15,166 bases of DNA from Clostridia bacterium. GTDB lineage: Bacteria; Bacillota; Clostridia; TANB77; UBA1234. The stretch lies in assembly GCA_017469465.1 (NCBI GenBank), contig JAFUGH010000002.1, positions 1 to 15,166 of the forward strand, written 5' to 3'. Made by a program: the position numbers and the translations under genes. Shown here one piece after another: positions 1-13,899 of the stretch. Every line of letters begins with the position of its first letter. Positions within the stretch are counted from its first letter, which is position 1. A model generated the notes under the pieces. It did no database searches and had not been told where the DNA came from. It saw nothing but the letters and a program-made list of their open reading frames with translations.

Positions 1-318
1 ATATTTTCTTCTACATTTAAAATGGGAATCAAATTATAAAATTGATATATTAACCCCACTTGTCTTCTCCTAAAAATAGCAAGTTTATCATCATTCAATT
101 CATAAATATCTTTTCCATCAATAAAAACTTTTCCGGCTAGTTGGTCTATCCACGCCTCCAATTAAATGTAATAAAGTGGACTTACCACTTCCAGACGCCC
201 CAACAATAGCAACAAACTCTCCTTTTTCTACTGAAAAAGAAACATTGTCTAACGCCACTACTTTTGCGTTATCCTTACCATAAACTTTTGTTAAATTTTC
301 AACTCTTAATATTTCCAT
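1..318 (-). CDS. ABC transporter ATP-binding protein (MacB/LolD/BceA-like exporter ATPase). C-terminus runs off the window start. Interrupted by a +1 frameshift at in-frame CGG 133..135.
   Basis: ATG at 316..318 follows AAGGAG. The N-terminus [15 protein letters not shown]...[29 protein letters not shown] contains Walker A. The zero frame then reads CGG AAA AGT TTT TAT TGA. Skipping the C at 135 gives [44 protein letters not shown], typical of this ATPase family, open to position 1. Confidence 0.85.
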
Positions 319-359
319 CTAAAAAACTCCTTTCTTCTTAGTAAAATATATAACATTCA

Positions 360-378
360 AAGTTACAGGTAAGTTACA
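360..378 (-). promoter_or_regulatory. Candidate response-regulator box: two direct AAGTTACA repeats 11 bp apart, overlapping the -35 position of the ABC ATPase promoter.
   Basis: AAGTTACA occurs at 360..367 and 371..378 (minus sense TGTAACTT-acc-TGTAACTT). An AT-rich -10-like TATATA/TATATT lies at about 343..352, and the ATG is at 318. One-helical-turn phasing is typical of OmpR-family binding sites. The cognate regulator is unknown. Confidence 0.3.
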
Positions 379-441
379 ATTTAAAATTTTGTATTACTTG
401 TACTAATACAGATATATTATAATATTTTCTTTTTGTCAATA

Positions 442-478
442 AATCGTGGTCGAAATCTTTGATTTCGTTTCCACGATT
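442..478. other. Imperfect nested inverted repeat (AATCGTGG-TCGAAATC...GATTTCG-ttt-CCACGATT) between the vanX-like terminator and the ABC promoter.
   Basis: Arms at 442..449/471..478 and 450..457/461..467 are read directly from the sequence. There is no clear U-tract. It could be a second terminator, an attenuator or a protein-binding site. Confidence 0.3.
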
Positions 479-491
479 ATATGGGTTTCCT

Positions 492-535
492 AGAAAAAGC
501 ACATACTAGACTTTTATTTAAGTCTAATATGTGCT
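492..535 (-). terminator. Rho-independent terminator downstream of the VanX-like gene.
   Basis: A 15-bp stem joins AGCACATACTAGACT (498..512) to AGTCTAATATGTGCT (521..535) with one mismatch and an 8-nt loop. In minus sense it is followed by TTTTTCT. It starts 16 nt after the stop at 551. Confidence 0.7.
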
Positions 536-550
536 TATATCATTTTTTGG

Positions 551-1339
551 TCATTTTACTACTTCATAGCTTGTTTTATCAGAAAAGTGCCACCACTCTC
601 CAAAATAAGCATTAAATCCATTTTTCTTCATTATATTTTCTAATAAAATTGCATTTTCTTTTGCTTCTTCTGAAACATCACTATAATCTCGATCTGCAAT
701 TTTAGTAAACTCATCAAAGTCTGAAGGCATTTCTATATCTGTTCCATCTAATTTAACTATGCTTAAATCTATTGTATTTCCTCTGCTATGACTTGAATAT
801 CCATTGTTTGGATTTGCTACATAAGTTGGATTCGGACAAACTTCCCATAATCTAAATTGTGCATCTACTGGTCTATAAGCATCCCATATTAGCAAACTAT
901 ATCCCATATTATTTAGTTCTTCTTGCACTTTTATTATTTTTTTTAGAGTTCCATATCTTAAATATGCCTCATCATTTTCATAAATAACAACACCTGTAAA
1001 ATTGTCCGTTGTTGCATATTTCAAATCAATAAAAATATTGGGTATGTAATCAATTATTTTCACTAAATCTTCATCTTTAGGCTCGTTCTTTGTTTCTATT
1101 GAATTTTCAGTTTTATTTGACGGATTGAGCATATCATTTTTATTTTCTCCTGAATCAATATTATTCATTTCAACTTCAATTTTATCAAATATTTTTTCTC
1201 TTTCTCCACTTTCTTCCTTTATATCTTTTACTTCATTCGTTGATTTTTCATTATACTTATTTTCTAAATGATTACTACATCCAGTTAGTATAATTACAAA
1301 AAAGTAACTTAATAAACAACACATAAACATTTTTTTCAT
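551..1339 (-). CDS. VanX-family (M15) D-alanyl-D-alanine dipeptidase with a lipoprotein signal peptide and a low-complexity linker.
   Basis: Family motifs are present: IDLKYATTDNFTG, WDAYRP, SSHSRGNTIDL (the SxHxxGxAxD-type zinc site) and GEWWHF. ATG 1337..1339 follows GGAGG and gives MKKMFMCCLLSYFFVIILTGC with an LTGC lipobox. About 90 aa of N/E/K-rich linker follow. The longer ORF start at 1417 has no RBS. Confidence 0.85.
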   Translation of the reverse strand: MKKMFMCCLLSYFFVIILTGCSNHLENKYNEKSTNEVKDIKEESGEREKIFDKIEVEMNNIDSGENKNDMLNPSNKTENSIETKNEPKDEDLVKIIDYIPNIFIDLKYATTDNFTGVVIYENDEAYLRYGTLKKIIKVQEELNNMGYSLLIWDAYRPVDAQFRLWEVCPNPTYVANPNNGYSSHSRGNTIDLSIVKLDGTDIEMPSDFDEFTKIADRDYSDVSEEAKENAILLENIMKKNGFNAYFGEWWHFSDKTSYEVVK

Positions 1340-1463
1340 ATCTCTTAAACCTCCAACTTTCAAATATTTATGTTTTTTAATATAAAGATAGAATGCTATC
1401 AAAAATCCTTCTCCCACATTATTATGCTAGATGATATTTCATTAATTAAATAGACTATTTTTT

Positions 1464-4334
1464 CTAATTTGAAGCAATTTCAAATCCAACTACTCCAATT
1501 CCACCTTCTAAAGTATAGATATCATCCACATCTTTTGTGTTGATATACTGATTCTCCATACTAGTGAATATTCTTATATAATTGATGTCATCCTTTACCA
1601 TTCCAAAAGCAGCAGAATTTTTACTAATCACAGATGCTTCTCTTGCTCCTGCATTCACTATTTTTATTTTAGAATCTGGTGAACATACATAAATAGGATA
1701 TTGTATAGTAAAACTGCCATCAGCATATTCATATTTTTCCATTTTCTTTTCTATCACATTTGTAATTTGAATTTCAAATCCATTAAATGAAGTAAAAGTT
1801 TCTTCATTCACAACATTACTTTCATTGGTATCTGTAAATTTAAATTTCGTAGCACCATATCGTGTAGCATATTCAATATTTTCTCCTGTTAAATTTTGAA
1901 ATGCCATTTTCACTTCTTTTGCATTTCCTATATAAGAAGTAAGCCAGGTATCATATTCGTCATTATCATAATACTCTTCTACACCACCATCTCCTAAAGA
2001 GATTAAATATACTAACCCATCATTATTTTTGTCAATGTCATCTGGGAAAAGCGTACCATCAAATTGACGTTCTGCTAATGATTTATCCCACGCGTCAACT
2101 TGAGAAATTATTTCATAGCTATCTTCTTTTTCATTATACCTATATAAATTATATGGCCAAAGCTTATCTCCCGCATATCCATGATTATGTGACCAATCTG
2201 CCATCAAAATTCCATTATCGTAAAAAGTAATGTATGGAGTTTCTATAAGTTCATTTTTCCATTCGTGGTTTTGGACATCATATTCATAAATCAATTTCAT
2301 CATTCCTGCTATAACCTGTGGGTTATGAGAAATAATTAATTCATCAATTCCGTCATTATCAACATCACAAATAGCAAACTTATCGTACTGAATATCAGCT
2401 TCACTATCTGCCACTTTCGTTCCATCTATTAATTCACCATTGTAATATAAATCTCTTAATGCCTTTTCGTAGTAATACATTCTCTCTCTTTCTTCTTCAT
2501 TCCACTCAGCTTTTTCTATTGTAATTCCTCTCACAACGGGATAAAAACCATATTTCTCATAAGAATCATTCAAAAGTTCATATAATTTTTCTTTACTAAT
2601 ATTCTTCAAATCATTTTCATTATTGGTAATCCATTCGATCTTTAATAATCGATTTTCATATCCGCTAAAAGTTATTTTTCCAATATTATCATAGTTGCTT
2701 TCGCTGATCGTTTCTCCATTTGGAAGTGCATAACTAATTTTAGGTTCAGTATATGTTTCTCCTGCATCACTATAAACAGCATCTCTCATCGCTAAATATT
2801 TTTCTGTAATTTTACCATCCTTTAAAATGAAATCACGTTTACTATCAAGATATTCAGTAGCACTAACTTTAATCCAATCATTAAGAACATAGTGATATGT
2901 ATTATTTTCAGCATCATAGTAAGTATCAAAATCTGAACCTACTATATCTACATCAGAATCACCCTCTATTAAATTAGATTCACACAAATTTAATCCATCA
3001 AACTTTTCGTTTACTTCAAAAATTCTATTGTATGTGTATCCTCCTGTTCCACCATAAGAGGCACTAATGATTTCTAATCTACCATTAAAGTCTAAATCTG
3101 TAATGGCATATCCCACTCCATCCAATTCAAAATCATTTTTCCAAAGTTCAACATTATCTATGATTACTTGTAATTGTTTTTCAACCTCAACTACCTGATT
3201 TTCTTCTCCATGATTTATCTCATTGTTAGATGTTTGGCTATTCTCTTTTCTATTGGTCAAGCAAATACACGCAATCACAATACATATGACAATCGCAACA
3301 ATTGAAATAGCAATTCCACTCTTTTTAGAATGAATCATATTTTTCACTCTTCTTTCCGTATTATTATCACTAAACGCAATGGGACATGGTACTAAATTAT
3401 TCATCTTTTTAGAGGATAAATTGATTAAGCTAGCCATATATCCCTCTTTTTCATCCTCACCTAAAATTTTTACTGTTTCTTCATCACAAAGCATTTCCAT
3501 ATCATCTACGAATAGTTTAAAAAATAAGTGAACAAATGGATTTACCCAATGCACGGATAAAATGAAGAATGCTACCACTTTCCACAAATAATCTTTTCTC
3601 TTGATATGTACGCTTTCGTGAGTCAATATATACTTTTTATCATCTTCATTTACATTTGGAGTTAAATATATTTGAGGTCTTATTATTCCTACCACACATG
3701 GCGTTGGAATCATGTCTGTTTCATAGTAATTTTCCTTTCCCTTTATTGCAAACATGACACTTCTTTTTAATTTGACGTAAGAGAACAAGGAATAAGCTAT
3801 CATACCTATTGTTCCAAATATCCATACTACCATCAGAATAATTGACACGTTAAACAGATTTATTTCTTTTTGCCCTGTAGTGTTCGTAAGATTTTTAGCA
3901 CTATTGAAAGGCTGAATTTGTCTATTGGTTGTCTGGTTTGTTTGAGTTTCTTTTTCTATATAATTTGGCATATTCTGATTTTGAGCTATTTCTTCTATAG
4001 TTGTAGGAAATATACTATTTGCATTTTCATTTTCAAAATCATTGTTCTGATTCCTTGTAAAATTAAAATTGGTATCATGATTGGTTAAAACGTCAGTTTG
4101 CTGATTTCCCGTTTGTTCTATAGAAAATGGACTATACAAATTAAACAAACTCAAATTACTTTCAAAAAACACAGGATTTACAAATCTAAGTGCAATAATA
4201 ATCCATAGTAAAAACAAAATCTTCCTAGGTGCTCCCAGTTTCTTTAATATATATTTGAAAATCAAGACAACTATAGCAACACAAGTTGCCATGAAATTTA
4301 TTTTCAAAAGTGTGAAAAACAAATTTGAAAGCAT
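1464..4334 (-). CDS. BlaR1/MecR1-family M56 zinc-metalloprotease signal transducer with a C-terminal extracytoplasmic domain of roughly 590 aa that is not a PBP.
   Basis: The HExxH motif HESVHIKRKDYLWK and the downstream EMLCDEE motif are typical of M56. There are N-terminal TM helices plus a further TM (IAISIVAIVICIVIACICL). The C-terminal region has no SxxK/transpeptidase signature. It contains DxDxDG-like motifs (DLDFNGRLEII, DVDNDGIDELI, DKNNDGLVYLI). The RBS GGGGG lies 7 nt before ATG 4334. Confidence 0.85.
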   Translation of the reverse strand: MLSNLFFTLLKINFMATCVAIVVLIFKYILKKLGAPRKILFLLWIIIALRFVNPVFFESNLSLFNLYSPFSIEQTGNQQTDVLTNHDTNFNFTRNQNNDFENENANSIFPTTIEEIAQNQNMPNYIEKETQTNQTTNRQIQPFNSAKNLTNTTGQKEINLFNVSIILMVVWIFGTIGMIAYSLFSYVKLKRSVMFAIKGKENYYETDMIPTPCVVGIIRPQIYLTPNVNEDDKKYILTHESVHIKRKDYLWKVVAFFILSVHWVNPFVHLFFKLFVDDMEMLCDEETVKILGEDEKEGYMASLINLSSKKMNNLVPCPIAFSDNNTERRVKNMIHSKKSGIAISIVAIVICIVIACICLTNRKENSQTSNNEINHGEENQVVEVEKQLQVIIDNVELWKNDFELDGVGYAITDLDFNGRLEIISASYGGTGGYTYNRIFEVNEKFDGLNLCESNLIEGDSDVDIVGSDFDTYYDAENNTYHYVLNDWIKVSATEYLDSKRDFILKDGKITEKYLAMRDAVYSDAGETYTEPKISYALPNGETISESNYDNIGKITFSGYENRLLKIEWITNNENDLKNISKEKLYELLNDSYEKYGFYPVVRGITIEKAEWNEEERERMYYYEKALRDLYYNGELIDGTKVADSEADIQYDKFAICDVDNDGIDELIISHNPQVIAGMMKLIYEYDVQNHEWKNELIETPYITFYDNGILMADWSHNHGYAGDKLWPYNLYRYNEKEDSYEIISQVDAWDKSLAERQFDGTLFPDDIDKNNDGLVYLISLGDGGVEEYYDNDEYDTWLTSYIGNAKEVKMAFQNLTGENIEYATRYGATKFKFTDTNESNVVNEETFTSFNGFEIQITNVIEKKMEKYEYADGSFTIQYPIYVCSPDSKIKIVNAGAREASVISKNSAAFGMVKDDINYIRIFTSMENQYINTKDVDDIYTLEGGIGVVGFEIASN

Positions 4335-4357
4335 TTCATTTCCCCCTTTTAGAACAA

Positions 4358-4717
4358 TTACTTTTTCGAATCACTAATCAGTTTTTTTATCTTTTTAATT
4401 TCCTCTTCATCTAACTTATTATCAGTTGTAAATGCTGCAATAAAAGAGTATAACGAACCTGCAAAATTCTTTTCTACAAAATCCTTACTTTCATTTTTCT
4501 GCACTTCTTCTCTACTAATTAAACTAGAAACAATTTTCTTTTCATTTTGAGCATATCCTTTTTGAATTAATCTTTTTAACATGGTGTAAGTAGTGGTTCT
4601 CTGCCAACTCAATTCATTGAAACATATTTCAGAAAGCTCTCTTGAGGTTAACGGTTCATTATCCCAAATAATTTGCATCACTCTGTACTCTGCATCAAAT
4701 AGCTTCACATACTCCAT
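4358..4717 (-). CDS. BlaI/MecI/CopY-family winged-helix transcriptional repressor.
   Basis: MEYVKLFDAEYRVMQIIW...TTTYTMLKRLIQKGY...EKNFAGSLYSFIAAFT matches the Penicillinase_R fold, and the conserved N-F lies where BlaI is cleaved. ATG 4715..4717 follows AAGGGGG. The ORF-track start at 4756 overlaps the operator palindrome and lacks an RBS. Confidence 0.85.
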   Translation of the reverse strand: MEYVKLFDAEYRVMQIIWDNEPLTSRELSEICFNELSWQRTTTYTMLKRLIQKGYAQNEKKIVSSLISREEVQKNESKDFVEKNFAGSLYSFIAAFTTDNKLDEEEIKKIKKLISDSKK

Positions 4718-4736
4718 ATAGTACCCCCTTTTCATT

Positions 4737-4789
4737 TTGTCTATTTTATTAGACAATTTTATTCTAACACGTTAGACAAAACTTGTCAA
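4737..4789 (-). promoter_or_regulatory. Sigma-A-type promoter and operator of blaI/blaR pair 1.
   Basis: In minus sense: TTGACA (4784..4789), a 17-nt spacer, then TGtTAGAAT (-10 at 4761..4766). The palindrome TTGTCTA-N6-TAGACAA at 4737..4756 lies just downstream of the -10. A TTTTGTCTAA half-site sits in the spacer. Confidence 0.55.
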
Positions 4790-4830
4790 TAAAATGATTT
4801 TTAGAATTTTTCGTATTCTTAATATTTTTA

Positions 4831-4892
4831 GGGACCCCTTCCAAAAACATCACCCCATTTTTGATGTTTTCGGAAGGTGTCCCCAAATGCAT
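4831..4892. repeat. Palindromic intergenic repeat, copy 1 (GGGACCCCTTCCAAAAACATCA / TGATGTTTTCGGAAGGTGTCCCC + AAATGCAT tail).
   Basis: Arms lie at 4831..4853 and 4862..4884. It is near-identical to the copies at 5853..5915 and 8195..8296. It sits between the sdpI-like stop (4915) and the blaI-1 promoter. Confidence 0.9.
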
Positions 4893-4914
4893 GCAAATAA
4901 TTTAACATTTATCT

Positions 4915-5463
4915 CTATACCCATATAATTGCTATTAGTAAAGCAATACCAACACCAATAAAACCATACCCCATCATTCTACTCATTCTTCTAAATGATT
5001 TTTCCGTTTTTGGAATTGGATGAAATATTTTTTTCCCTGTTTCATAATTCATTTTAGGCATATAGTTTCCAATGACTGAAAATAATATTCCTAATATCAA
5101 ACATACACTTTTTCCAACATAAACATCGCTACCTAATGGAACTTCTATCATAATGATATATACCAATACTGTGACAATTGGAATAAACCATTCTATTATT
5201 TTAACAATTTTAGGTTTTTCGTTATTTTGCAATTGATTAACTTTTGTTGTAGATATGATGCATATTGCTTGTATAACAGCCATAATAACTGGTATTCCAA
5301 ATAATGCAAAATTCTTTGGTGCATAATTATCTGGTACATCATTTATCGTAAAATGAATTGGCATTTGATCTGGCAATCTATTATATAACGCAATACCTAA
5401 TACTATTGGTAATAAACATGTAATTACACTTAAAATTAGTGTTCTTTTATTATTCTTTTCCAT
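4915..5463 (-). CDS. SdpI/DUF1648-family polytopic membrane protein (immunity/signal-transducer-like).
   Basis: The N-terminus LPDQMPIHFTINDVPDNYAPKNF resembles the DUF1648 motif. There are four predicted TM helices. It overlaps the upstream ArsR/SdpR-like gene by 14 nt, as in sdpR-sdpI operons. Confidence 0.65.
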   Translation of the reverse strand: MEKNNKRTLILSVITCLLPIVLGIALYNRLPDQMPIHFTINDVPDNYAPKNFALFGIPVIMAVIQAICIISTTKVNQLQNNEKPKIVKIIEWFIPIVTVLVYIIMIEVPLGSDVYVGKSVCLILGILFSVIGNYMPKMNYETGKKIFHPIPKTEKSFRRMSRMMGYGFIGVGIALLIAIIWV

Positions 5464-5737
5464 TCTTATTTCCTCCCAACTTATAAATCCAAACTAAGAC
5501 ATCTTCAAATACAGAACTATTCAATTCATAAAATATAAAGTTTTTCTGCTTTGTTTCCGTTATTAAATTTGCTTTTTTTAAATTTGATAAATGATATGAT
5601 ACAGTTGCCCCTGTTAAATTAAAACTGCTGGATATTTCTCCTGCTGTTTTTCTACCATCTTTTAATAGTTCTAGTATCTCTCTTCTCACAGGATCACTAA
5701 TTGCTTTTAATGTTTCCGACATTCCCAAATGAATCAC
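5450..5737 (-). CDS. ArsR/SmtB-family (SdpR-like autorepressor) transcriptional regulator.
   Basis: LKAISDPVRREILELLKDGRKTAGEISSSFNLTGATVSYHLSNLKKANLI is a canonical ArsR wHTH. The start is uncertain: GTG at 5737 or ATG at 5722 (MSETLKAIS...), with GAGGTG upstream. Confidence 0.85.
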   Translation of the reverse strand: MIHLGMSETLKAISDPVRREILELLKDGRKTAGEISSSFNLTGATVSYHLSNLKKANLITETKQKNFIFYELNSSVFEDVLVWIYKLGGNKNGKE

Positions 5738-5749
5738 CTCACTTATAGG

Positions 5750-5828
5750 TATTTAGATATTTATCTAAATAGATTTTACCACTTTATCATTTCAATTTCA
5801 ATAACTATTTAGATATTTTTCTAAATAG
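5750..5828 (-). promoter_or_regulatory. Two near-identical 23-nt operator-like sites upstream of the sdpR-like gene.
   Basis: TATTTAGATA-tt-TATCTAAATA at 5750..5771 is a perfect 10-bp inverted repeat. CTATTTAGATATTTTTCTAAATAG at 5805..5828 shares TATTTAGATATTT(A/T)TCTAAATAG with one mismatch. The sites are 55 bp apart and lie in the promoter region. Confidence 0.5.
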
Positions 5829-5832
5829 TCAG

Positions 5833-5915
5833 ATGTTTTTGGGGATGTTTTTGGGGACACCTTCCAAAAACATCACCTCATTTTTGATGTTTTCGGAAGG
5901 TGTCCCCAAATGCAT
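5833..5915. repeat. Palindromic intergenic repeat, copy 2, with a tandem 12-nt duplication at its left edge.
   Basis: The left arm GGGGACACCTTCCAAAAACATCA is at 5853..5875 and the right arm TGATGTTTTCGGAAGGTGTCCCC at 5885..5907. The tail AAATGCAT is at 5908..5915. ATGTTTTTGGGG is duplicated at 5833..5844 and 5845..5856. Confidence 0.9.
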
Positions 5916-5926
5916 CCCCCATTTTG

Positions 5927-7738
5927 TTATAAATCTTGTTCTTCCATAGCTTCATCACGGAATACTTCAAATGTAAGCTTATCCATTATTTCATTTTCAT
6001 TATAATAGATAGTTACATACTCATTTTTTTCGGCATTTCCTTTACAATAAGTAATAGCAAAACGATTGTTATTAGCTTCATATCTCGTACTAATTGCATT
6101 TACCCCCCAATTAAAAAAATCTGGTAAATTTAGTTTTTCATCATCAATATAGAACATCAAACTAGAAGGGGAATTAGAAGCATTAAAATTAAGCATATAG
6201 CTCATAAAAATATATACACTTTCGTGTCCATCTCCTCCAAAAGTACAATTACATATTAGTTCGGAAATGCCATCTCCATTGATATCCTTTACGGTATCTC
6301 CTCGTTCTTGTTCTAAGCCGAAACTTGTTGCAAGCAAATATTCCTGATCACCCACTTTTGTATAATAATCCCTTGTATAAAAATGTGGTGCACTTTCCGT
6401 ATCTTTATAATAAGTATTATACCCCATTATATTTTGAAACTCTGTTGCTTGACCTATGATATGATTAATCATATCTTTATCTAGCCACTCTTCCAGTACA
6501 CTTATATCAATTTCGTTGTTGGAATTCCAATAGTATCCTTGATATTCTATTCGTTGTTTGCTCATGATAGAAATAACTTCCACAAGCTGTTCATTACCAT
6601 CATACCATTGAACGATTAATCCGAAACCGTTCCTATTTTTACTGGAATCATCCCTAGTAAACTCAAGAGAATTAAAATCATTTGTAAATTGTTGGATCAT
6701 ATCGATATTATCGATTTCAAATCTTTTACCTGAATAAGAATAAATAACTATTTTCTTCACATCATCTATTTTAAATTTTTTTAGCTTTTCCACTGGTTTG
6801 GTAAAAAAGCAAACACCCACAACAACACAGGATAATAAAGCAATGAAAACAATCCAAAATCTTGGCTTTTTATAATTAAGCACAGCTTTTATTCTATCTT
6901 TAACGCCAACCTCTCCAAAAGCTACAGGACAAGTTCTTATCATCAAATTTGATTTCATTAAACTACAAGATAAAAGTGTTTCAGAATATCCTTTTACATC
7001 CTCTATTTCTAAATTACGGATTACTTTTTCATCCGTAGCAAGTTCTATATCTTTGCTAAATAAATGATAAGAAATCCAAACAAGTGGATTAAACCAATAA
7101 ATTGAAAGAAGAAGAAATCCAAGTGGTTTCCACAAATTATCGTGTCTTGATAAATGTGCCTTTTCGTGTAATAAAACATACATCGTTTCAACTTGACTCA
7201 TATTGGATGGTAAATAAATTTTAGGCTTAATAATGCCAAAAATAAACGGTACTTTGATATCATCACAAATATAAATATTATCTTGAACATTGATAGATGC
7301 ACTTACCATTTTCTTTAATCGAATATAACAAATTGTACCATATAATAAAATTCCAATTGTTCCAACTATCCATATATAGCTAAATATGTTTAAATAATTG
7401 ATATTTTTAGCTGTCAATTGAGTGTCATTCGTTTCTATATTAGTATTAGTTGTAATAACATCCATATTAATGTTATTACCAGTAGTATAAGGTTCGTTAC
7501 CGATTATTATTGGATTTTCCATAATATATTCGGCTGGTACTATCTCATTTCTTGGCATTACACTAAAAGAACTTTCAAAAGAAATGGGACAAATCAAACG
7601 AATAGCGACTAATGCCCATAAAATGCAGTATATGTATTTGGGTGCTTTTTTCATAAGCATTCTTAGTAAGACTACTGCAACAATCAGGAAACTTGCAGAA
7701 ATACTTAATTTTAATAATTCTAAAAAGAGTTGACTCAT
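5927..7738 (-). CDS. BlaR1/MecR1-family M56 metalloprotease signal transducer (paralog 2) with a non-PBP C-terminal domain.
   Basis: It carries HEKAHLSRHDNLWK (HExxH) and IELATDEK, with TM helices at the N-terminus and at about aa 295-315. The C-terminal region of roughly 290 aa lacks SxxK but contains DINGDGISELI...FGGDG. Its start overlaps the blaI-2 stop (TAATG). Confidence 0.85.
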   Translation of the reverse strand: MSQLFLELLKLSISASFLIVAVVLLRMLMKKAPKYIYCILWALVAIRLICPISFESSFSVMPRNEIVPAEYIMENPIIIGNEPYTTGNNINMDVITTNTNIETNDTQLTAKNINYLNIFSYIWIVGTIGILLYGTICYIRLKKMVSASINVQDNIYICDDIKVPFIFGIIKPKIYLPSNMSQVETMYVLLHEKAHLSRHDNLWKPLGFLLLSIYWFNPLVWISYHLFSKDIELATDEKVIRNLEIEDVKGYSETLLSCSLMKSNLMIRTCPVAFGEVGVKDRIKAVLNYKKPRFWIVFIALLSCVVVGVCFFTKPVEKLKKFKIDDVKKIVIYSYSGKRFEIDNIDMIQQFTNDFNSLEFTRDDSSKNRNGFGLIVQWYDGNEQLVEVISIMSKQRIEYQGYYWNSNNEIDISVLEEWLDKDMINHIIGQATEFQNIMGYNTYYKDTESAPHFYTRDYYTKVGDQEYLLATSFGLEQERGDTVKDINGDGISELICNCTFGGDGHESVYIFMSYMLNFNASNSPSSLMFYIDDEKLNLPDFFNWGVNAISTRYEANNNRFAITYCKGNAEKNEYVTIYYNENEIMDKLTFEVFRDEAMEEQDL

Positions 7739-8106
7739 TATTTTTTCCCCTTTCCATAGGAGTTAATCATTCTCTTGATTTCTTCAATATCTTTCTTTGA
7801 CAAGTTATTTCTTGTAGTAAATGCAGCGATAAATGCAGGGAGTGAGCCTCCAAAGTTTTCGCCTACAAATTTTTCACTTTGCATTGCGTAAAATTCATCT
7901 TTTGAGATAATGGATGAAACTACTCCCCCATCATTTTTAAAGATTCCTCTTTCACATAGTTTTTTTAATACAGTATAAGTAGTAGATTTTTTCCACTCTA
8001 GCTTTTCTTTACATAGTTCTACTAACTTACCAGAATTTAAAGGCTCATTATTCCATATAATATCTGCAAATTGAGATTCAACAACACCTAATTTTATTTC
8101 TTCCAT
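7738..8106 (-). CDS. BlaI/MecI/CopY-family repressor (paralog 2).
   Basis: MEEIKLGVVESQFADIIWNNEPL...STTYTVLKKLCERG...GENFGGSLPAFIAAFTT matches the family. By eye it is roughly half identical to the product of 4358..4717. The RBS AAAGGAGGAA lies upstream of ATG 8106. Confidence 0.85.
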   Translation of the reverse strand: MEEIKLGVVESQFADIIWNNEPLNSGKLVELCKEKLEWKKSTTYTVLKKLCERGIFKNDGGVVSSIISKDEFYAMQSEKFVGENFGGSLPAFIAAFTTRNNLSKKDIEEIKRMINSYGKGKK

Positions 8107-8120
8107 TATTTTTCCTCCTT

Positions 8121-8176
8121 TGGTCTATTATTAGTCGACTCTATGTATAGTCTATCATGAATAGACCGTTTGTCAA
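8121..8176 (-). promoter_or_regulatory. Promoter and operators of blaI/blaR pair 2.
   Basis: In minus sense: TTGACA (8171..8176), a 16-nt spacer, then TGaTAGACT. The inverted repeat GTCTAT...ATAGAC at 8150..8166 lies in the spacer. A second imperfect site, GGTCTATTATTAGTC, sits at 8122..8136. The GTCTA/TAGAC half-sites match those of pair 1. Confidence 0.45.
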
Positions 8177-8187
8177 GAGGTAATTTA

Positions 8188-8296
8188 TGTTTTTGGGGAC
8201 ACCTTCCAAAAACATCACTTCATTTTTGATGTTTTCGGAAGGTGTCCCCAAATGCACCTCATTTTTGATGCTTTCGGAAGGTGTCCCCAAATGCAT
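8188..8296. repeat. Palindromic intergenic repeat, copy 3, with its right half (loop + arm + tail, 39 nt) tandemly duplicated.
   Basis: The left arm is at 8195..8217 and the right arm at 8227..8249. The 39-nt units at 8218..8256 and 8257..8295 differ at two positions. It lies between the vanS-like stop (8307) and the blaI-2 promoter. Confidence 0.9.
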
Positions 8297-8306
8297 CACC
8301 AAAAAT

Positions 8307-9389
8307 TCATAATTTTATTCTAAATTCGATTTCTTCATTTTCACTTCTCGCTTCAATCATTCCTCCGTGTAACTCAATAATCTCTTTGGTAATTGCAAGA
8401 CCTAGTCCTGCGCCTCCCGTATGAGAGCCTCTTGATTCATCTGCTCTATAAAACTTATCAAATATTCTTTCCAATTTATGTTTTGGAATAGTAATCCCAC
8501 TATTTTTAAATAATATCTCTACCCCATCTTCATGTTCTGTGATATTGATTATTATCGTTGTATTTTCATAACTATAATGAATTGCATTTTTTAATAAATT
8601 TCCAAAGGCTCTAGCAAATTTATCTCCATCAGCAACATATAGCAGGCTATTGGGTTTATTTACTTCTAATGTTAATCCTCGTTCTTCAAGCATAGGATAA
8701 AATTCTTCTATTAGCTGATCAAATAATATGGATAAATCGATATTCGTTTTATGAATAGGCATATCCTTCAAACTGTATCTCGTAATTTCAAAAAATTGAT
8801 TCGTTAAATCTTCCACTCTTAAGGATTTATCAAGTGCTATTTTGGTGTACTTCTTTCGTAGTTCTCCGCTGATATCCTCTTCTTCATTCATCAAAGATAA
8901 ATATCCAATTACTGAAGTAAGAGGTGTTTTCAAATCGTGAGCCATATACATGATTAAATCATTTTTCTTTGTTTCAGCATCTTTGGCTTTATTTTTATTT
9001 GTGGTATATTCGTATTTGATTTTATTAAGTTTATCCGAAAACATCCATAAAGAACTTGGTAATTCGATATTCGATACATTCTCATCAAAAACTGTATCCA
9101 GTGACTGATACATCTTTTTTAATTCATTTACTTTTGTAGAAATAAAACGATATATCATAATACCATAAATAATCGCTAAACATATCAGCAAAAAAGTATT
9201 TTTGTGGTAGGCAACCCATACATAAAATTCTGGGAATTTATCAGAAGTAATGTTAGCAATGAAATCGTTCAATATCCCATCAATAAAAACAACTTTCACA
9301 ATAATTGCTAAAACGTATGTAATAATAAACTTTAGCATTAGTATTCCGAATATTCTAAATTTTTCAACCAACCATTTTCTATTTTTCAA
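8307..9389 (-). CDS. vanS: VanS-like sensor histidine kinase.
   Basis: There are two N-terminal TM segments. The H-box MAHDLKTPLTSVIGYLSLMNEEE and FFEITRY closely resemble VanS. The N box is LLKNAIHYS and the G box GGAGLGLAITKEIIELHGG. It overlaps the upstream regulator gene by 11 nt. Confidence 0.85.
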   Translation of the reverse strand: MKNRKWLVEKFRIFGILMLKFIITYVLAIIVKVVFIDGILNDFIANITSDKFPEFYVWVAYHKNTFLLICLAIIYGIMIYRFISTKVNELKKMYQSLDTVFDENVSNIELPSSLWMFSDKLNKIKYEYTTNKNKAKDAETKKNDLIMYMAHDLKTPLTSVIGYLSLMNEEEDISGELRKKYTKIALDKSLRVEDLTNQFFEITRYSLKDMPIHKTNIDLSILFDQLIEEFYPMLEERGLTLEVNKPNSLLYVADGDKFARAFGNLLKNAIHYSYENTTIIINITEHEDGVEILFKNSGITIPKHKLERIFDKFYRADESRGSHTGGAGLGLAITKEIIELHGGMIEARSENEEIEFRIKL

Positions 9390-10063
9390 TTTTATACCCT
9401 ACTCCCCAAACAGTTTTTATATATTTTGGTTTCTTGCTGTTATCGTTTAATTTTTCTCTAATTCTCCTAATATGCACCATCACTGTATTATTGTTCTCTA
9501 AATATTTTTCTTTCCATACTTTTTCAAATAGTTCTTCCGAACTTACAACATTCCCCTTCTTTTGTGCTAAATATAGTAGTACATCAAACTCAATGGGAGT
9601 AAGCTCTATTACTTTATCATATAATTTGCAAATATGTTTTTCTGGACTTATTTCTAAGCCATCTATCTCAATGACATTTTCTTCTTCTCTGTCATTATAT
9701 TTGGTATATCTCCTATAAGCCGATTTCACTCTAGCAACTAGTTCCAATGGATTAAAAGGTTTGGTCATATAATCATCTGCCCCGAATGGCTAGCCCTTGT
9801 ATCATATCTTTATCCTCTATTTTAGCAGTCAGCATGATAATAGGAAAATGCAAATCCTTTTCTCTAATATACTTACAGATTTCAAACCCATCCACATCTT
9901 TTATCATAACATCTAATATTGCAAAGTCTAATTTTTGTGTATCAATACAATTCATTGCCTCTTTGGAATTGTAAAATTTAAAGACATTGTAATTCTCGTT
10001 TTTCATGTATAATTCAACTAAATCCGCTATTTCTTTTTCATCATCTAATACTAATATATTCAT
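9379..10063 (-). CDS. vanR: VanR-like OmpR-family response regulator, interrupted by a +1 frameshift at in-frame CGG 9782..9784.
   Basis: The receiver domain MNILVLDDEKEIADLVELYMKNENYNVFKFYNSKEAMNCID...PIIMLTAK...IQGLAI runs into CGG GGC AGA TGA. Skipping the C at 9784 gives G-ADDYMTKPFNPLELVARVKSAYRRY and a complete winged-helix domain. This restores the universal GxxxGADDYxxKPF motif. The length of 685 nt is 3n+1. Confidence 0.85.
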
Positions 10064-10130
10064 TGTTCTCCCCTTTTTTAGTTGTATTCTACCATAAACT
10101 TTTTGCTGTTTCCACTCTCACAAAGAAATG

Positions 10131-10170
10131 TAAGAAAAAGTTAAGAATTCGTTAATGAATCCTTAAAACA
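10131..10170. promoter_or_regulatory. Four TAAGAA-like direct repeats with 11-bp phasing in the divergent vanR-like / C39-peptidase intergenic region.
   Basis: TAAGAA is at 10131, TAAGAA at 10142, TAATGAA at 10153 and TAAAAC at 10164. On the plus strand TATACT (-10) is at 10189..10194 with no good -35. The last repeat occupies the -35 position, as at activator-dependent OmpR-family promoters. Confidence 0.4.
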
Positions 10171-10215
10171 CTTTGTTACATACATCATTATACTTTCTAT
10201 TATAGGAGGAGTATT

Positions 10216-11022
10216 ATGAACCGAGTGAATCAGAAAAAACGTAGAAGAAAAATCAATATCAGGAGATTACTATTTGTCATCATTATTTTCCTATTTGCAA
10301 TCCAATGCTTGAAAAAGTTTCTCAAGATACAGCAAAATAAAAGGTTGCCATCATTTCAACAAATAACAGAAAATTATGTTTTACCAATCTTTCAAAAAAG
10401 TAGTGGTGAATATGAAATTATCAAACAAGATACCAATGATAACTATGATGGAATTGGACAAGAAAAAGTGTCTCATCAAGATGGGTATTTTACTACCTTT
10501 ACCACTGCTCAGCCAAACCAAAAAACTTATATTGAATACAAACAAAATGGAGATGCTTCTTGGAGTCAAAAGGAATATTGGGGAGATACTATGGAAAATA
10601 GCGGATGTGGTATTGCTGCCCTTTCCATCATACTCAGTGGTTATGGGAAAACTGATACTCCAGAAGATTTAAGAAATAAGTATTATCCTGTCTTAAATTA
10701 TGAAACACTAACAACAGAATTATGGGATTCATTCGGCATCAAAGCATCTGGATTTTTCTATGACCAAGAACATTTATCAGAGGATTATATGAAACGTCAT
10801 TTATTAAAAGACAAACCTATTTTTATTTGTGTATGGACAAAACCAAAGGCCAACCGCTGGACAACCAGTTCTCACTACATGGTCTTGCTAGCATCAGACG
10901 GACAGGATATGGTATATGTTTCTAATCCAAACGGTGGAGAAAATGACAGCAAAAGTTCTGGGTGGTACAAGTTTGATGAAGTGGTTCCATATATCGCTAA
11001 AATACTTTTTATTGATAGTTAA
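10216..11022 (+). CDS. Membrane-anchored or secreted C39-like (papain-fold, YvpB-like) cysteine peptidase.
   Basis: AGGAGG precedes the ATG. A basic N-terminus and a TM anchor are present (KKRRRKINIRRLLFVIIIFLFAI). NSGCGIAALSIILSGYG supplies the catalytic Cys context and SSHYMVLLASDGQDMVYVSNPNG the His. It is the only convincing plus-strand gene. Confidence 0.7.
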   Translation: MNRVNQKKRRRKINIRRLLFVIIIFLFAIQCLKKFLKIQQNKRLPSFQQITENYVLPIFQKSSGEYEIIKQDTNDNYDGIGQEKVSHQDGYFTTFTTAQPNQKTYIEYKQNGDASWSQKEYWGDTMENSGCGIAALSIILSGYGKTDTPEDLRNKYYPVLNYETLTTELWDSFGIKASGFFYDQEHLSEDYMKRHLLKDKPIFICVWTKPKANRWTTSSHYMVLLASDGQDMVYVSNPNGGENDSKSSGWYKFDEVVPYIAKILFIDS

Positions 11023-11024
11023 GT

Positions 11025-11070
11025 AAAATAAGAGCAGGCGATAAGTTAATGATTGCCCGCTCTTATTTTT
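11025..11070. terminator. Bidirectional rho-independent terminator between convergent genes.
   Basis: The stem pairs ATAAGAGCAGGC (11028..11039) with GCCCGCTCTTAT (11055..11066), with one A-C (plus) / G-U (minus) position. TTTTT follows on the plus strand, and AAAA on the left gives a U-run for the minus strand. Confidence 0.65.
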
Positions 11071-11126
11071 AGTTATCTTTGAATTAATTTCTGACATGAT
11101 AGCTATTGCCCACATAAATTGTAATT

Positions 11127-11636
11127 TTAATGTTTCTTTCTTGTTAAACCAATTCCTATCATTGAGCCTATAAAAACTATTGGGGCTATTCTTACAAAAA
11201 TCCATACAAATGAATGAATACCAACCCCTAATATTGCTAATTCTGGATCGTTGTAATCCCATTCCATATAGGTATTTCCTAATGTTGCTATAACAATAAA
11301 AATTGCTACCAAAATTACACACATCGATATAAGTATCCAATGTAAAAACTTTCTTCCTCTTTCTTTTCTTTGTGCTAATTGTAGATTAATTATTTCGAGT
11401 TTTTCGGCAATTTCTTTTAAACTATCTGTCTTTTCTTCAGGAATATTTTCCCCAAGAAGTGTATTTACAGGTGTGTCCAAAGCATCAGACAATGCAACTA
11501 ACAATTCAGAATCTGGTACAGATAAACCCTGTTCCCATTTTGATATTGTTTGTCTAACAACATTTAATTTAATTGCTAATTCCTCTTGTGAAAGTCCTTT
11601 TGATTTTCTAATTGATTTAATATTATCTTTTAGCAT
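11127..11636 (-). CDS. XRE-family HTH regulator with a C-terminal transmembrane domain.
   Basis: The HTH_3 domain reads IRKSKGLSQEELAIKLNVVRQTISKWEQGLSVPD. A charged linker follows (LQLAQRKERGRK). Two hydrophobic helices are present (FLHWILISMCVILVAIFIVIATL and GIHSFVWIFVRIAPIVFIGSMIGIGL). The RBS is GGGAGG. Confidence 0.8.
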   Translation of the reverse strand: MLKDNIKSIRKSKGLSQEELAIKLNVVRQTISKWEQGLSVPDSELLVALSDALDTPVNTLLGENIPEEKTDSLKEIAEKLEIINLQLAQRKERGRKFLHWILISMCVILVAIFIVIATLGNTYMEWDYNDPELAILGVGIHSFVWIFVRIAPIVFIGSMIGIGLTRKKH

Positions 11637-11758
11637 ACTATATGCCTCCCTTCTTTAAAAAGGAATATATGCTAAATCTTTCGTTGCTACAAGCAATGCA
11701 AATTAACATTCGTTAAAAAAGCTCCATAGCAACGATAACTAACTATTTGTCTCGATAA

Positions 11759-12424
11759 TTATAATAATGATAATCCCAAACTAAGCATGATTATATACAT
11801 GATAGTTTTTGGCATCATTAGCATTCCTAATTTGGGATTATTCTTTCCAAATAAAGCAACCGGCATATAAAATATACAACTTAATAAAATACATATTGCT
11901 GTTGTCATTCCATAAGTTCCACCTAACATCATGAATAATACCACTTCAGTTAAGCCAGTTATAGCAAAAACTCCATTTCTATAGAATGACATTTTTTTGT
12001 TTCCGCCTGTAAACCAATTATTTTGTGGTAACAAACATAGTATAATTCTAATGCACGATGTAAGCCATATCAGTATTGGAATGATATTTGAAATTTTGCC
12101 ACTATATTGTATTGCCCAAATATAAAATAAAATGATATAAAATATTGTCATAGTAATTGATGTAACAATTAACCCAAAATTCATCCACCATTTTACTTTT
12201 TCGGTTTCCCCTTTTATATTTTTGACAACTCTTGGAACTAAATGAAACGCATCTCCAAAACCAAGAACGAAAGCCATGATACCATACAAAAGAAATAGTT
12301 CATTATGGCCATTATTTAAAAATATGATTCCAACTATTAAATCAAATATTAAATAAGCAATACTAAATACTGATTCTCCAATTCTCATTCCCATTTTTTC
12401 TTTCCCCATGTTAACAACTCCCAT
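11759..12424 (-). CDS. Polytopic membrane protein of unknown function (about 7 TM helices).
   Basis: It is a long ORF with uniformly hydrophobic helices, and I recognise no family motif. The start is uncertain: ATG 12424, or ATG 12409 preceded by GGGAG. Confidence 0.55.
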   Translation of the reverse strand: MGVVNMGKEKMGMRIGESVFSIAYLIFDLIVGIIFLNNGHNELFLLYGIMAFVLGFGDAFHLVPRVVKNIKGETEKVKWWMNFGLIVTSITMTIFYIILFYIWAIQYSGKISNIIPILIWLTSCIRIILCLLPQNNWFTGGNKKMSFYRNGVFAITGLTEVVLFMMLGGTYGMTTAICILLSCIFYMPVALFGKNNPKLGMLMMPKTIMYIIMLSLGLSLL

Positions 12425-12517
12425 TTGAGCATATAATAAAAATTACTTTGTATCTTTGTCTAACTTATACGCAATATCAAAATAGTGCGAACATCACGAT
12501 ATCTGTAATTTACTATT

Positions 12518-13063
12518 CTAATTTGTTACGAATGACTGTCCCATTTCGGTCACTTCAATGTTGTACACATATATAGCTGGAGTAACTTTATCAAATACAT
12601 TGTCAGTACCAACAATACCTGTTACTTCAACCCATACCCCCTCTTCAGGATATTCACCTGCATATCTTATATCAAGTCCTGCAAGCCCATCACTGCCACA
12701 ACAACCTGGGGTATTTCTTACAACAGCATAACATATATCTCCGTTATTATCCTTATATGTATAAACCCAGCCTTGCATTTTGATTGATTTGCCTATATAA
12801 TCATTAATGTTTAAAAATACATCATTGGTTGATTGTATAAAATACTTTTCTTTTATTTCAATCATATTTTTTTCATCTATTGCTGCAAAAGCCTGTAAGG
12901 TTTTTCTAATCTTACCATCACCACTCTCATTCGGAGCAGAAACAGAAAATAAGGTTACGTGATTCATATTGGAATTTTCCGTTTTGTGATTTATTACAAT
13001 TCCTCCAACAATAATAGCTAATACAATAATGGAGCATACAACAAACATTCCTTTTTTATTCAT
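12518..13063 (-). CDS. Membrane-anchored DUF1980/TIGR03943-like protein with a CC motif, last gene of the metal ABC operon.
   Basis: It has an N-terminal TM anchor. The C-terminal pattern YIGKSIKMQGWVY...VVRNTPGCCGSDGLAGLDI...GVWVEVTGIV resembles the GFV...CCAADA...WV.V.G pattern of DUF1980. Its RBS AGGAGG overlaps the permease stop. Confidence 0.5.
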   Translation of the reverse strand: MNKKGMFVVCSIIVLAIIVGGIVINHKTENSNMNHVTLFSVSAPNESGDGKIRKTLQAFAAIDEKNMIEIKEKYFIQSTNDVFLNINDYIGKSIKMQGWVYTYKDNNGDICYAVVRNTPGCCGSDGLAGLDIRYAGEYPEEGVWVEVTGIVGTDNVFDKVTPAIYVYNIEVTEMGQSFVTN

Positions 13064-13076
13064 AATGATTAGCCTC

Positions 13077-13899
13077 CTAAGTGTTTTTTATTTTATCAAT
13101 TAACGAAAACAAAATAAATGCAATCAAATTTACAATAACTATCATTGCACCTGTACTAATGTCATACACATAAGACATATATATTCCGAAGCCAAAAAGT
13201 AACAAGACTAATGATTGCAGATGAAATAACTACTTTTTTGTATGACTTAAAAATTCTCATAGAAGTAAGTGCCGGAAAAATGATAATACTACTGATTAGC
13301 ATAACTCCCATCATTCTCATTCCTATCACAATAATTAAGCTGGTTAGAACTGCAATAATATTTGTATATCTATTGGCTTTTAGTCCACTCGCTCTTGCAA
13401 AATTTTCATCAAAAGTTACAATAAATAATTTACGATAATAAATGACAAATAACACTGCAACAATAATACTCACAATTACACTTAAATATACATCTGCAAT
13501 ACTCATTGCCAAAATACTTCCAAACATAAAATTACATACATCTGTATTCATGCCAGTAGTAGCTGAAGTTACTGCAACACCTATTGCTAACGCCGAACTT
13601 GAAATTAAAGCAATAGCACTATCACTTTTTATCTTACTATTATTTCCTATCTTTAGAAGAATAATTGAAAAAAGAGCAACTCCAGGTATTGCTATATATA
13701 ACGGAGAAGATATTTCAAGTGCGGTTGATACAGTAAGTATTCCAAAACCAACATGTGATAATCCATCCCCTATCATGCTATACCTCTTTAGAACTAAACT
13801 AACCCCTAAAAGTGCTGCACAAAGGCTTACTAAACTTCCTACCAATATTGCCCTTACAATGAACGCATGTGACAACATTTCCGATAAAGTTTCTATCAT
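13077..13899 (-). CDS. Metal (Zn/Mn/Fe-type, ABC-3 family) ABC transporter permease, interrupted by a +1 frameshift at in-frame CGG 13186..13188.
   Basis: MIETLSEMLSHAFIVRAILVGSLVSL... is typical of ZnuB/MntB-type permeases. The zero frame reads ...VTFWL CGG AAT ... TGA (stop at 13162). Skipping the C at 13188 gives G-IYMSYVYDISTGAMIVIVNLIAFILFSLIDKIKNT, the conserved family C-terminus, with its stop at 13077..13079. The length of 823 nt is 3n+1. The start overlaps the ATPase stop (TAATG). Confidence 0.85.

Follow-up and report, generated by a model that had tools for sequence, protein, structure and literature searches.

Work on repetitive extragenic palindromic (REP) sequences, on their inverted doublets (REPINs) and on the REP-associated tyrosine transposases (RAYTs) has been carried out almost entirely in Proteobacteria. 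The present analysis concerns a 15,166-nt stretch of DNA from a Clostridia bacterium (assembly GCA_017469465.1, contig JAFUGH010000002.1, positions 1 to 15,166; hereafter the window), in which three long palindromes lie at the junctions of neighbouring repressor and membrane-sensor modules. A preliminary description, made from the sequence alone, had proposed several roles for these palindromes, among them an RNA element selected on the coding strand, a recombination site shuffling sensor cassettes, and a mobile palindrome resembling REPs or miniature inverted-repeat transposable elements, with a cognate RAYT-like gene elsewhere. Our results favour the last of these: the three palindromes are probably non-autonomous, REPIN-like inverted doublets (copy 3 having an extra arm) and belong to a family that a Y1/HUH transposase of RAYT/TIRYT type would spread in trans.

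The closest described systems are found among RAYT relatives. RAYT-like TIRYT genes have inverted repeats with the shared motif GGGGWSAS on either side, and some of these repeats make up families of moderate abundance that comprise singles, dimers and groups (Di Nocera et al., 2013; PMC3733652). Most TIRYTs belong to TnpA-Y1 subclass 2.1, with a C-terminal extension of helix-turn-helix (HTH) type, and no REP-like sequences were reported for this subclass (Quentin et al., 2018; PMC6006769). Group 1 RAYTs have been reported in Clostridia; abundant repeats were linked to Groups 2 and 3 alone, and for Group 1 the flanking 16-mers were found in only about 12 copies (Bertels et al., 2017; PMC5581495). 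Published surveys of HTH-extended RAYT relatives (TIRYT, subclass 2.1, Group 1) have found few or no associated repeat families; in the present case a transposase resembling these relatives goes together with a dispersed family of singlets and long doublets, in uncultured Clostridia of gut and rumen.

A dispersed repeat unit and its inverted doublets

The three copies are present at the places first reported, and their full extents, to which no strand is assigned, are as follows.

4822-4892, copy 1: REPIN-like doublet, arms 4830-4852 and 4862-4884, loop 4853-4861
5832-5919, copy 2: REPIN-like doublet, arms 5853-5875 and 5885-5907, loop 5876-5884, outer extension to 5919
8187-8296, copy 3: REPIN-like triplet, arms 8195-8217 and 8227-8249, loop 8218-8226, third arm 8266-8288

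The 23-nt arm GGGGACACCTTCCRAAAACATCA has seven matches in the window at up to 3 mismatches, against 0.00 expected (200 shuffles). The loop is of 9 nt in all copies and the palindrome reaches outward as ATGTTTTTGGGG...CCCCAAATGCAT. The left arm of copy 1 carries two substitutions, one of them in its core (4831-4842, GGGACCCCTTCC), and the core of its right unit lies at 4872-4883 on the minus strand. Both duplications noticed at the outset are real: the 39-nt one of copy 3, made of the loop and right arm, occupies 8218-8256 and 8257-8295/6 (repeat family with a spacing of 39), and the 12-nt one of copy 2 is a tandem of GATGTTTTTGGG at 5832-5843 and 5844-5855, its phase being one base off the original reading (5833-5856).

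The arm was then searched beyond the window, as had been suggested. When a collection of species-representative genomes was scanned with a 21-nt arm pattern, nine stretches were found on eight contigs of a single metagenome-assembled genome (MAG), Clostridia bacterium RGIG4463 from roe-deer omasum, and one stretch in another uncultured Clostridia MAG; a metagenome scan gave seven contigs. A match in Hoeflea (L011) was treated as chance, being a lone arm in a GC-rich context. Collections of viral contigs, plasmids and phages contain no copies of the element, and there is therefore no sign of a phage or plasmid vehicle in them.

The entity that recurs in these sequences is not the long palindrome but a unit of about 32 nt, (G)ATGTTTTTG-GGGACACCTTCC-RAAAACAT(C), that is xATGTTTTTG-GGGACACCTTCC-RAAAACATx, each arm of the palindrome being one unit. 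With a relaxed pattern, 47 units are counted at about 33 sites in the 116.7 kb examined, at least 24 of them on the eight RGIG4463 contigs; as these loci were chosen for carrying a unit, the count is not a genome-wide copy number. All 47 occurrences of the 12-nt core in this sequence (at up to 1 mismatch) are such units, and the core GGGGACAC is unchanged in 42 of the 44 units of the main family. Units are present as singlets and as inverted doublets with loops of 5-33 nt, the examined loci containing 11 doublets (12 arm pairings when the extra arm of copy 3 is included). The distribution is strictly extragenic: none of the 47 units lies inside a real open reading frame (ORF), even though non-ORF sequence makes up only 14% of the 116.7 kb. 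Their neighbours are mostly housekeeping genes (FtsW, MurG, MraY, aminoacyl-tRNA synthetases, Def/Fmt, RpoB). About a quarter of the units have one or two extra tandem outer 12-mers, (G/A)GG(G/A)ATGTTTTT, the same feature as at 5832-5855. The literature on the core sequence yielded only chance matches in eukaryotic primers, and no earlier description of it.

Each unit is also self-complementary, its flanks ATGTTTTTGG and CCAAAAACAT pairing around the loop GGACACCTT as an 11-bp stem with a 9-nt loop. In the 47-unit alignment, 86.7% of the cells of this stem are paired, and sliding the 3' partners by 1-3 columns lowers the figure to 45-54%. The covariance analysis that had been proposed for the copies gives double changes in 5 of the 11 stem pairs, such as T-A to C-G in ATGCTTTTGG/CCAAAAGCAT or AT/AT to CC/GG in a CCTG...CAGG sub-family. 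Compensated cells number 21 against 8.4 expected, a value reached by none of 500 shuffles, and these counts are to be taken as support rather than proof, being partly inflated by related copies. As single-stranded DNA the consensus unit folds at -10 to -12 kcal/mol (z -4.4 to -6.1).

The window copies have derived features in common that are present in no other examined copy: the left arm is of A type and has ATGTTTTT, the right arm is of G type and has ATGCATTT, and the loops read AAAATGRRG. Similarly, RGIG4463 has four doublets at different loci (contigs L002 and L007) with a common inner CAGCAT and the loop TAAAAAGNNNC. Since loops and arm-specific variants are common within such sub-families, the copied entity is the whole doublet. 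The arm-specific variants and homologous loops of the window copies therefore indicate one progenitor doublet, and at the level of their sequences the three copies are shown to be its descendants, copied whole. They fill three neighbouring intergenic gaps. The palindromes are 94-99% identical, whereas the paralogous modules that they flank have only 46% (BlaI) and 30% (BlaR) protein identity, and the elements thus arrived long after the modules had diverged.

The three copies are now fixed in the lineage. They are present, with the same cores, in four strains that diverge by at most 1.6% (the window and contigs L001, L024 and L025), copy 1 being identical in L024 and L025, and copy 3 in L001, L024 and L025. 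L001 is 99.84% identical to the window, with 15 differences over 9.4 kb, 11 of which fall at the border of copy 2. There, the number of outer 12-mers, the one feature of the copies that varies, differs among strains that are 98.4-99.8% identical, three alleles being found (GATGTTTTTGGG on one side, GGGGATGCATTT on the other, at 5908-5919). The site may be a hot spot of slippage, or the variation a trace left by the transposase. No target-site duplication is evident at the borders of the three copies when the sequence is read directly.

A transposase gene flanked by the units

A RAYT-like gene of the kind suggested is found in related genomes, between two inverted units. A tblastn search of the RGIG4463 loci, with an E. 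coli RAYT sequence as the query (it agrees with the chain in 4ER8), gave one ORF, and homologues of its product are flanked in the same manner on metagenome contigs.

L008:5762-6529, minus strand: 255-aa transposase gene of RGIG4463, between two inverted units oriented like the arms of a doublet, its TGA stop lying inside the downstream unit
P0008 (flanks on L022/L023): 59% identical to the L008 protein, from metagenome study XIEF21-1, the same study as L001; flanked by inverted units of identical core
P0003 (L019-L021): 62% identical to the L008 protein, from JGI/NCBI metagenome contigs; flanked by 2+2 units of a sister repeat

The L008 protein matches Pfam Y1_Tnp (E=7e-9) and the NCBIfam model for REP-associated tyrosine transposases, NF047646 (E=2.7e-19), and its best sequence match in the PDB is 4ER8, E. 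coli TnpA-REP (RAYT) bound to a REP hairpin. With this protein as query, 651 homologues are found; they are about 250 aa long and come mostly from uncultured Clostridia, and JGI names some of them RayT. In the two related genomes where the flanks have the core of the window copies, the gene encodes 253-255 aa; the 923-nt Logan contig with P0008 begins and finishes inside units. The sister repeat at the P0003 locus has the core GGGACACGTTCC and different stems, and the flanks carry GGGGACAC or AGGGACAC at all three transposase loci.

All of 50 homologues keep the HUH motif (H60, H62), Y120 (YIHNNPV), N124 and P125, which line up with E. coli TnpA-REP. When the AlphaFold (AF2) model of P0008 (pLDDT 88.7) is compared with the PDB, 4ER8 ranks first (E=1.7e-7, target TM 0.70) and the IS608, ISDra2 and IS200 transposases come after it, Y1 HUH folds occupying ranks 2-30. 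About 100 extra C-terminal residues are all helical in this model, and HTH_23/HTH_24 are matched weakly in 2-3 of the 50 members.

Acting on single-stranded DNA, an enzyme of this kind would recognise, cut and rejoin the unit. Because the transposase gene sits between two inverted units, a doublet would in effect be a transposase locus minus its gene, and the window copies could have been mobilised in trans from such a locus.

At all three RAYT/TIRYT genes, a G-rich hairpin followed by a T-run, e.g. GGGGCTAGATTTTTCTAGTCCCTTTTTG, is observed between the upstream unit and the ribosome-binding site (L008 6530-6640, L022 30-132, L019 3900-4000), and on L022 a promoter-like TTGACA...TAGAAT site stands just before it. 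The hairpin and T-run could be a leader attenuator for transposase expression.

Several points weigh against our reading of the palindromes as mobile doublets. No transposase gene was found in the window. The L008 protein scores 69.5 bits with NF047646, under the equivalog cut-off of 80, and its closest database relatives are at most 63% identical. No pair of filled and empty orthologous sites was found, the ArsR modules without the element sitting in non-orthologous contexts, so that movement is deduced rather than seen. The choice of loci behind the unit count and the kinship of copies behind the covariation count, both mentioned above, go in the same direction. Finally, the small hairpin is weak in the right-arm units of the window, with the outer variant ATGCATTT (-3.5 kcal/mol, z -1.3), as well as in the sister repeat (-1.3 kcal/mol). 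As both fold weakly, the GGGGACAC core possibly carries more weight than the hairpin, and the transposase may recognise the former rather than the latter.

Gene context and alternative readings

The window has a GC content of 30% and is almost completely coding on the minus strand from 15166 down to 551. The gene calls of the preliminary description hold in kind: two BlaI/BlaR1-M56 pairs, an ArsR gene with a DUF1648 gene (an sdpR/sdpI-like pair) and a HisKA/HATPase kinase. The features around the copies are as follows, all on the minus strand; the genes are assigned by domain matches unless another basis is given, and the promoter-like sites by consensus match only.

8307-9389: histidine kinase (HisKA, HATPase_c), context gene whose stop adjoins copy 3
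8149-8176: promoter-like TTGACA-16-TAGACT of BlaI-2, 10 nt from copy 3
7738-8106: BlaI-2, between copies 3 and 2 with BlaR-2
5927-7738: BlaR1-like M56 sensor 2 (BlaR-2), context gene
5773-5801: promoter-like TTGAAA-17-TAAAAT, TG-extended, of the ArsR gene, about 30 nt from copy 2
5450-5722: ArsR-type repressor, ATG start, between copies 2 and 1
4915-5463: DUF1648 membrane protein, paired with the ArsR gene
4761-4789: promoter-like TTGACA-17-TAGAAT, TG-extended, of BlaI-1, 33 nt from copy 1
4358-4717: BlaI-1, downstream of copy 1
1464-4334: BlaR1-like sensor of 956 aa (BlaR-1), downstream of copy 1
551-1417: VanX-like dipeptidase (gene call)

Each copy does lie between the stop of one gene and the promoter-like site of the next, as first described. 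Measured from the outer end of each copy, the preceding stop is 2-10 nt away for copy 3 (histidine kinase, 8307), 7 nt for copy 2 (BlaR-2, 5927) and about 20 nt for copy 1 (DUF1648, 4915), and each copy is situated 10-44 nt upstream of the minus-strand promoter-like site of the following gene. This arrangement, with the three copies all in one orientation, is what would be expected if the hairpins were host-selected RNA elements of the minus strand, such as 3' mRNA stabilisers, terminators or insulators devoid of a U-tract, or RNase III sites, with the G-U pairs recording the selection. Indeed, minus-sense RNA of the copies folds into highly stable hairpins (-37 to -60 kcal/mol, z -6.9 to -11.2), which, because of one G.U, are somewhat more stable than the plus-sense ones (-29 to -58 kcal/mol). 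A terminator scan gives only plus-strand pattern matches inside the element, and there is no other terminator-like site at the three junctions. Many REPs have been reported downstream of coding regions and plausibly act as RNA (PMC3733652).

The argument from G-U pairs is nevertheless not sustained. The A.C mismatch in plus sense that becomes a G.U wobble in minus sense is indeed found, at CCA/CGG, in all three copies, but the outer extension has a T.G favouring the plus strand, together with a T.T mismatch. The position concerned is column 25 of the unit, with A in 24 units and G in 21 (T-A against T.G), and it pairs with T in the unit hairpin either way. As the same derived state, the ATGCATTT variant and homologous loops are found in all three copies, the asymmetry reflects common descent, i.e. 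one state inherited alongside other derived features. In the L002 doublet at 1360/1398, both wobbles are on the non-coding, non-transcribed sense, and most other doublets are perfect. Random orientation relative to transcription had been named beforehand as speaking against a role in RNA sense, and the singlets located between co-directional genes are oriented 7 with and 8 against transcription. With the inherited asymmetry, the plus-favouring T.G, the L002 doublet and the random singlets, the evidence for selection as minus-strand RNA is gone.

Other observations point the same way. No U-tract follows the stem on either strand at the three junctions, the minus-strand stem being followed by CCCCAAAAACAT, and no Rfam family is matched in the whole window at gathering thresholds. 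Elsewhere, several units adjoin canonical hairpin-plus-T-run terminators or sit directly upstream of ribosome-binding sites. The preliminary description was right that these are not classical terminators, and we rejected the intrinsic terminator on both grounds, the missing U-tract and the co-occurrence of units with canonical terminators. A host-selected RNA role is thus unlikely. It is plausible, by analogy, that transcribed copies form a strong 3' hairpin on the upstream mRNA, which might stabilise it or damp read-through as a by-product. In E. coli, REPs stabilise upstream mRNA and, within about 15 nt of a stop codon, can lower translation of the upstream gene.

A second alternative is that the doublets are attC-like or Xer-like sites at which a site-specific recombinase excises, inserts and reshuffles cassettes such as the sensor modules, and it starts from the fact that each module is bracketed by doublets. 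Two observations speak for cassette shuffling: gene content between doublets differs in RGIG4463, and one short contig has a breakpoint inside the equivalent of copy 2. Contig L002 is 82-83% identical to the window over BlaI-1/BlaR-1, with other genes upstream: a Tim44-like membrane protein, a CMD-cupin protein and small ORFs without a family match. They lie on both strands and are set apart by three doublets and one degenerate unit (four elements in 4.2 kb; L002 1-5800), such that each has a doublet or a unit on either side. In both species the BlaI-1 locus looks variable and rich in repeats. Up to the inner end of the proximal arm (window 5875), contig L030 and the ArsR module are 98% identical; past this point, L030 has a different loop (with a terminator), far arm and upstream gene. 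Contig L001 also ends 50-60 nt beyond copy 2.

Against it, the array is the same in four strains and a scan of 17 window ORFs found no integrase or recombinase. Each module comes with its own promoter-like site, and the genes bracketed in L002 are on both strands and are not sensor modules; a 114-aa and 181-aa pair considered there is unrelated to ArsR/DUF1648 of the window, and no bracketed L002 ORF is a sensor module. Most units are singlets beside housekeeping genes, and direct reading of the arms reveals no attC R''/R' core sites. The ArsR protein is moreover found in at least five other contexts without any unit, with a promoter 87-92% identical and homology beginning at the outer border of copy 2. 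Although units coincide with synteny breaks in L002 and L030, homologous recombination between dispersed repeats is enough to account for the latter without a dedicated system, and either this or preferential insertion into variable regions suffices for the breaks in general. The doublets would then also be a source of homology for local rearrangement. A dedicated recombination site is therefore a very unlikely reading.

A broader proposal combines several of these elements. Repeats of the GGGGACAC type, served by an HTH-extended transposase of TIRYT class, would form self-replicating REPIN populations in Gram-positive Clostridia, with doublets acting as preferred breakpoints or insulators that modularise and reshuffle small gene units such as the sensor modules, the 12-nt repeats being insertion footprints of the transposase beside its own half-site. 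Taken as a whole, this is unlikely.

That the units are operators bound by a host regulator co-ordinating neighbouring promoters is hardly credible: they have dyad symmetry around a conserved core and lie 10-44 nt from promoter-like sites, but they also occur after stops, inside operons, beside housekeeping genes of every kind and on both sides of a transposase gene in three genomes, and the ArsR gene has operator-like palindromes of its own by its promoter. These two palindromes, CTATTTAGA-N6-TCTAAATAG (5745-5772 and 5801-5828), bracket the promoter, are kept in other genomes (L026-L031) and are likely to be the operators of the ArsR-type repressor. A CRISPR array was also rejected, since the units are in inverted orientation, with 9 nt between those of one copy and 1-2.3 kb from one copy to the next, and there are no cas genes.

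Some further observations concern the neighbouring genes. In L026-L031, a different hairpin, TAGATTAGTT-N8-AACTAATCTA, stands where the window has copy 2. On 14 contigs (L024-L031 among them) from unrelated metagenomes, including Hadza human gut, the 90-aa ArsR protein has one and the same amino-acid sequence, while identity at the DNA level is only 87-92% and the genes upstream are not the same, which points to a widely shared, strongly constrained small regulator module. Five of these contigs end one base after codon 90, most simply as a selection effect of exact look-up on partial genes. Exact look-ups of the DUF1648 protein and of the 956-aa BlaR1 returned no record. At 551-4756, on the minus strand, BlaI-1 and its unusually long BlaR1-like M56 sensor are directly followed by a gene for a secreted or membrane-anchored VanX/M15 D-Ala-D-Ala dipeptidase-like protein, an order that hints at a cell-wall-stress-responsive unit rather than a beta-lactamase regulon. 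For the response regulator beside the histidine kinase (9379-10063, minus strand), the receiver (9773-10063) and Trans_reg_C (9379-9768) parts are separate ORFs in different frames. Since L001, L024 and L025 show the same split in their gene calls, the cause is a lineage frameshift or pseudogene, or a recoding site, and not a one-off assembly error. Another frameshifted gene is possibly the ZnuC-like ABC ATPase of a ZnuA/ABC-3 zinc-uptake cluster (13899-14469, minus strand), of which only the C-terminal half is called (137 aa, profile 75-137) with a short upstream ORF, and which is short in L001 too.

Comparison with known systems

The element is probably incidental to the sensor operons themselves. 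It is a known kind of genomic passenger, in a bacterial group for which no earlier description was found, and not a new kind of system. It nevertheless offers a Gram-positive test case for substrate choice and copying by enzymes of the RAYT kind, as well as a practical reason for assembly breaks in these MAGs. It also calls for caution in annotation: strong hairpins after stops in these genomes are not terminators, and asymmetries within them need not mean selection at the RNA level. These results should be useful to researchers working on REPINs and RAYTs and to those annotating MAGs of gut Clostridia.

Among the systems considered, integron attC sites are the most distant. Like them, the window copies are imperfect palindromes at the 3' end of successive units, with conserved unpaired or asymmetric bases. 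Unlike them, they come with neither IntI nor RYYYAAC/GTTRRRY core sites, they separate modules that have their own promoter-like sites, and the element also occurs singly beside housekeeping genes and around a Y1 transposase gene. The attC reading was rejected on the absence of the core sites and of intI among the window ORFs scanned. Elements of the IS200/IS605 group (IS608, ISDra2) have in common with the present system the Y1 HUH fold, hairpin-forming ends and no evident target duplication. They differ in that the transposase described here is better matched by RAYT models than by IS200 (NF047646, E=3e-19; 4ER8 first by structure), that no TnpB is associated with it, and that one and the same unit, in inverted orientation, forms both ends, where IS200/IS605 elements have a left and a right end of different kinds.

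The likeness to REP, BIME and REPIN sequences is closer. As in these systems, a short extragenic unit with hairpin potential forms inverted doublets, which have a short spacer and fold into a long hairpin; it is the doublet that is replicated, inverted units stand on both sides of the transposase gene, and the encoded protein has the HUH and Tyr residues, with 4ER8 as best structural match. In contrast, the unit ends GATG...CATC within the stem and the GTAG/CGTC end tag of REPs is absent from the unit alignment. The protein is about 90 aa longer and falls under the NCBIfam equivalog cut-off, and the host is a low-GC Gram-positive bacterium, whereas E. coli TnpA-REP and Pseudomonas REPINs belong to Proteobacteria. 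To our knowledge, the outer 12-nt half-stem repeats, in 1-3 copies and variable among strains, are not a described feature of REPINs.

The closest likeness of all is to the TIRtron/TIRYT class, which overlaps largely with TnpA-Y1 subclass 2.1 and probably also with Group 1 RAYTs. As in TIRtrons, a RAYT-like Y1/HUH gene has inverted flanks with GGGGWSAS (here within GGGGACAC), and the flanking repeat is also present elsewhere as singles, dimers and groups. The protein is also longer than the E. coli RAYT; its C-terminal extension, all-helical in the P0008 model and weakly matched by HTH domains in a few members, may correspond to the HTH-type extension of subclass 2.1. On these features, and not on phylogeny, the repeat family is filed, from its sequences, with the RAYT/TIRYT-associated repeats rather than with classical GTAG REPs. 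What distinguishes it from TIRYT, subclass 2.1 and Group 1, compared in the same way, is a dispersed self-complementary unit whose long, perfect doublets are copied as doublets.

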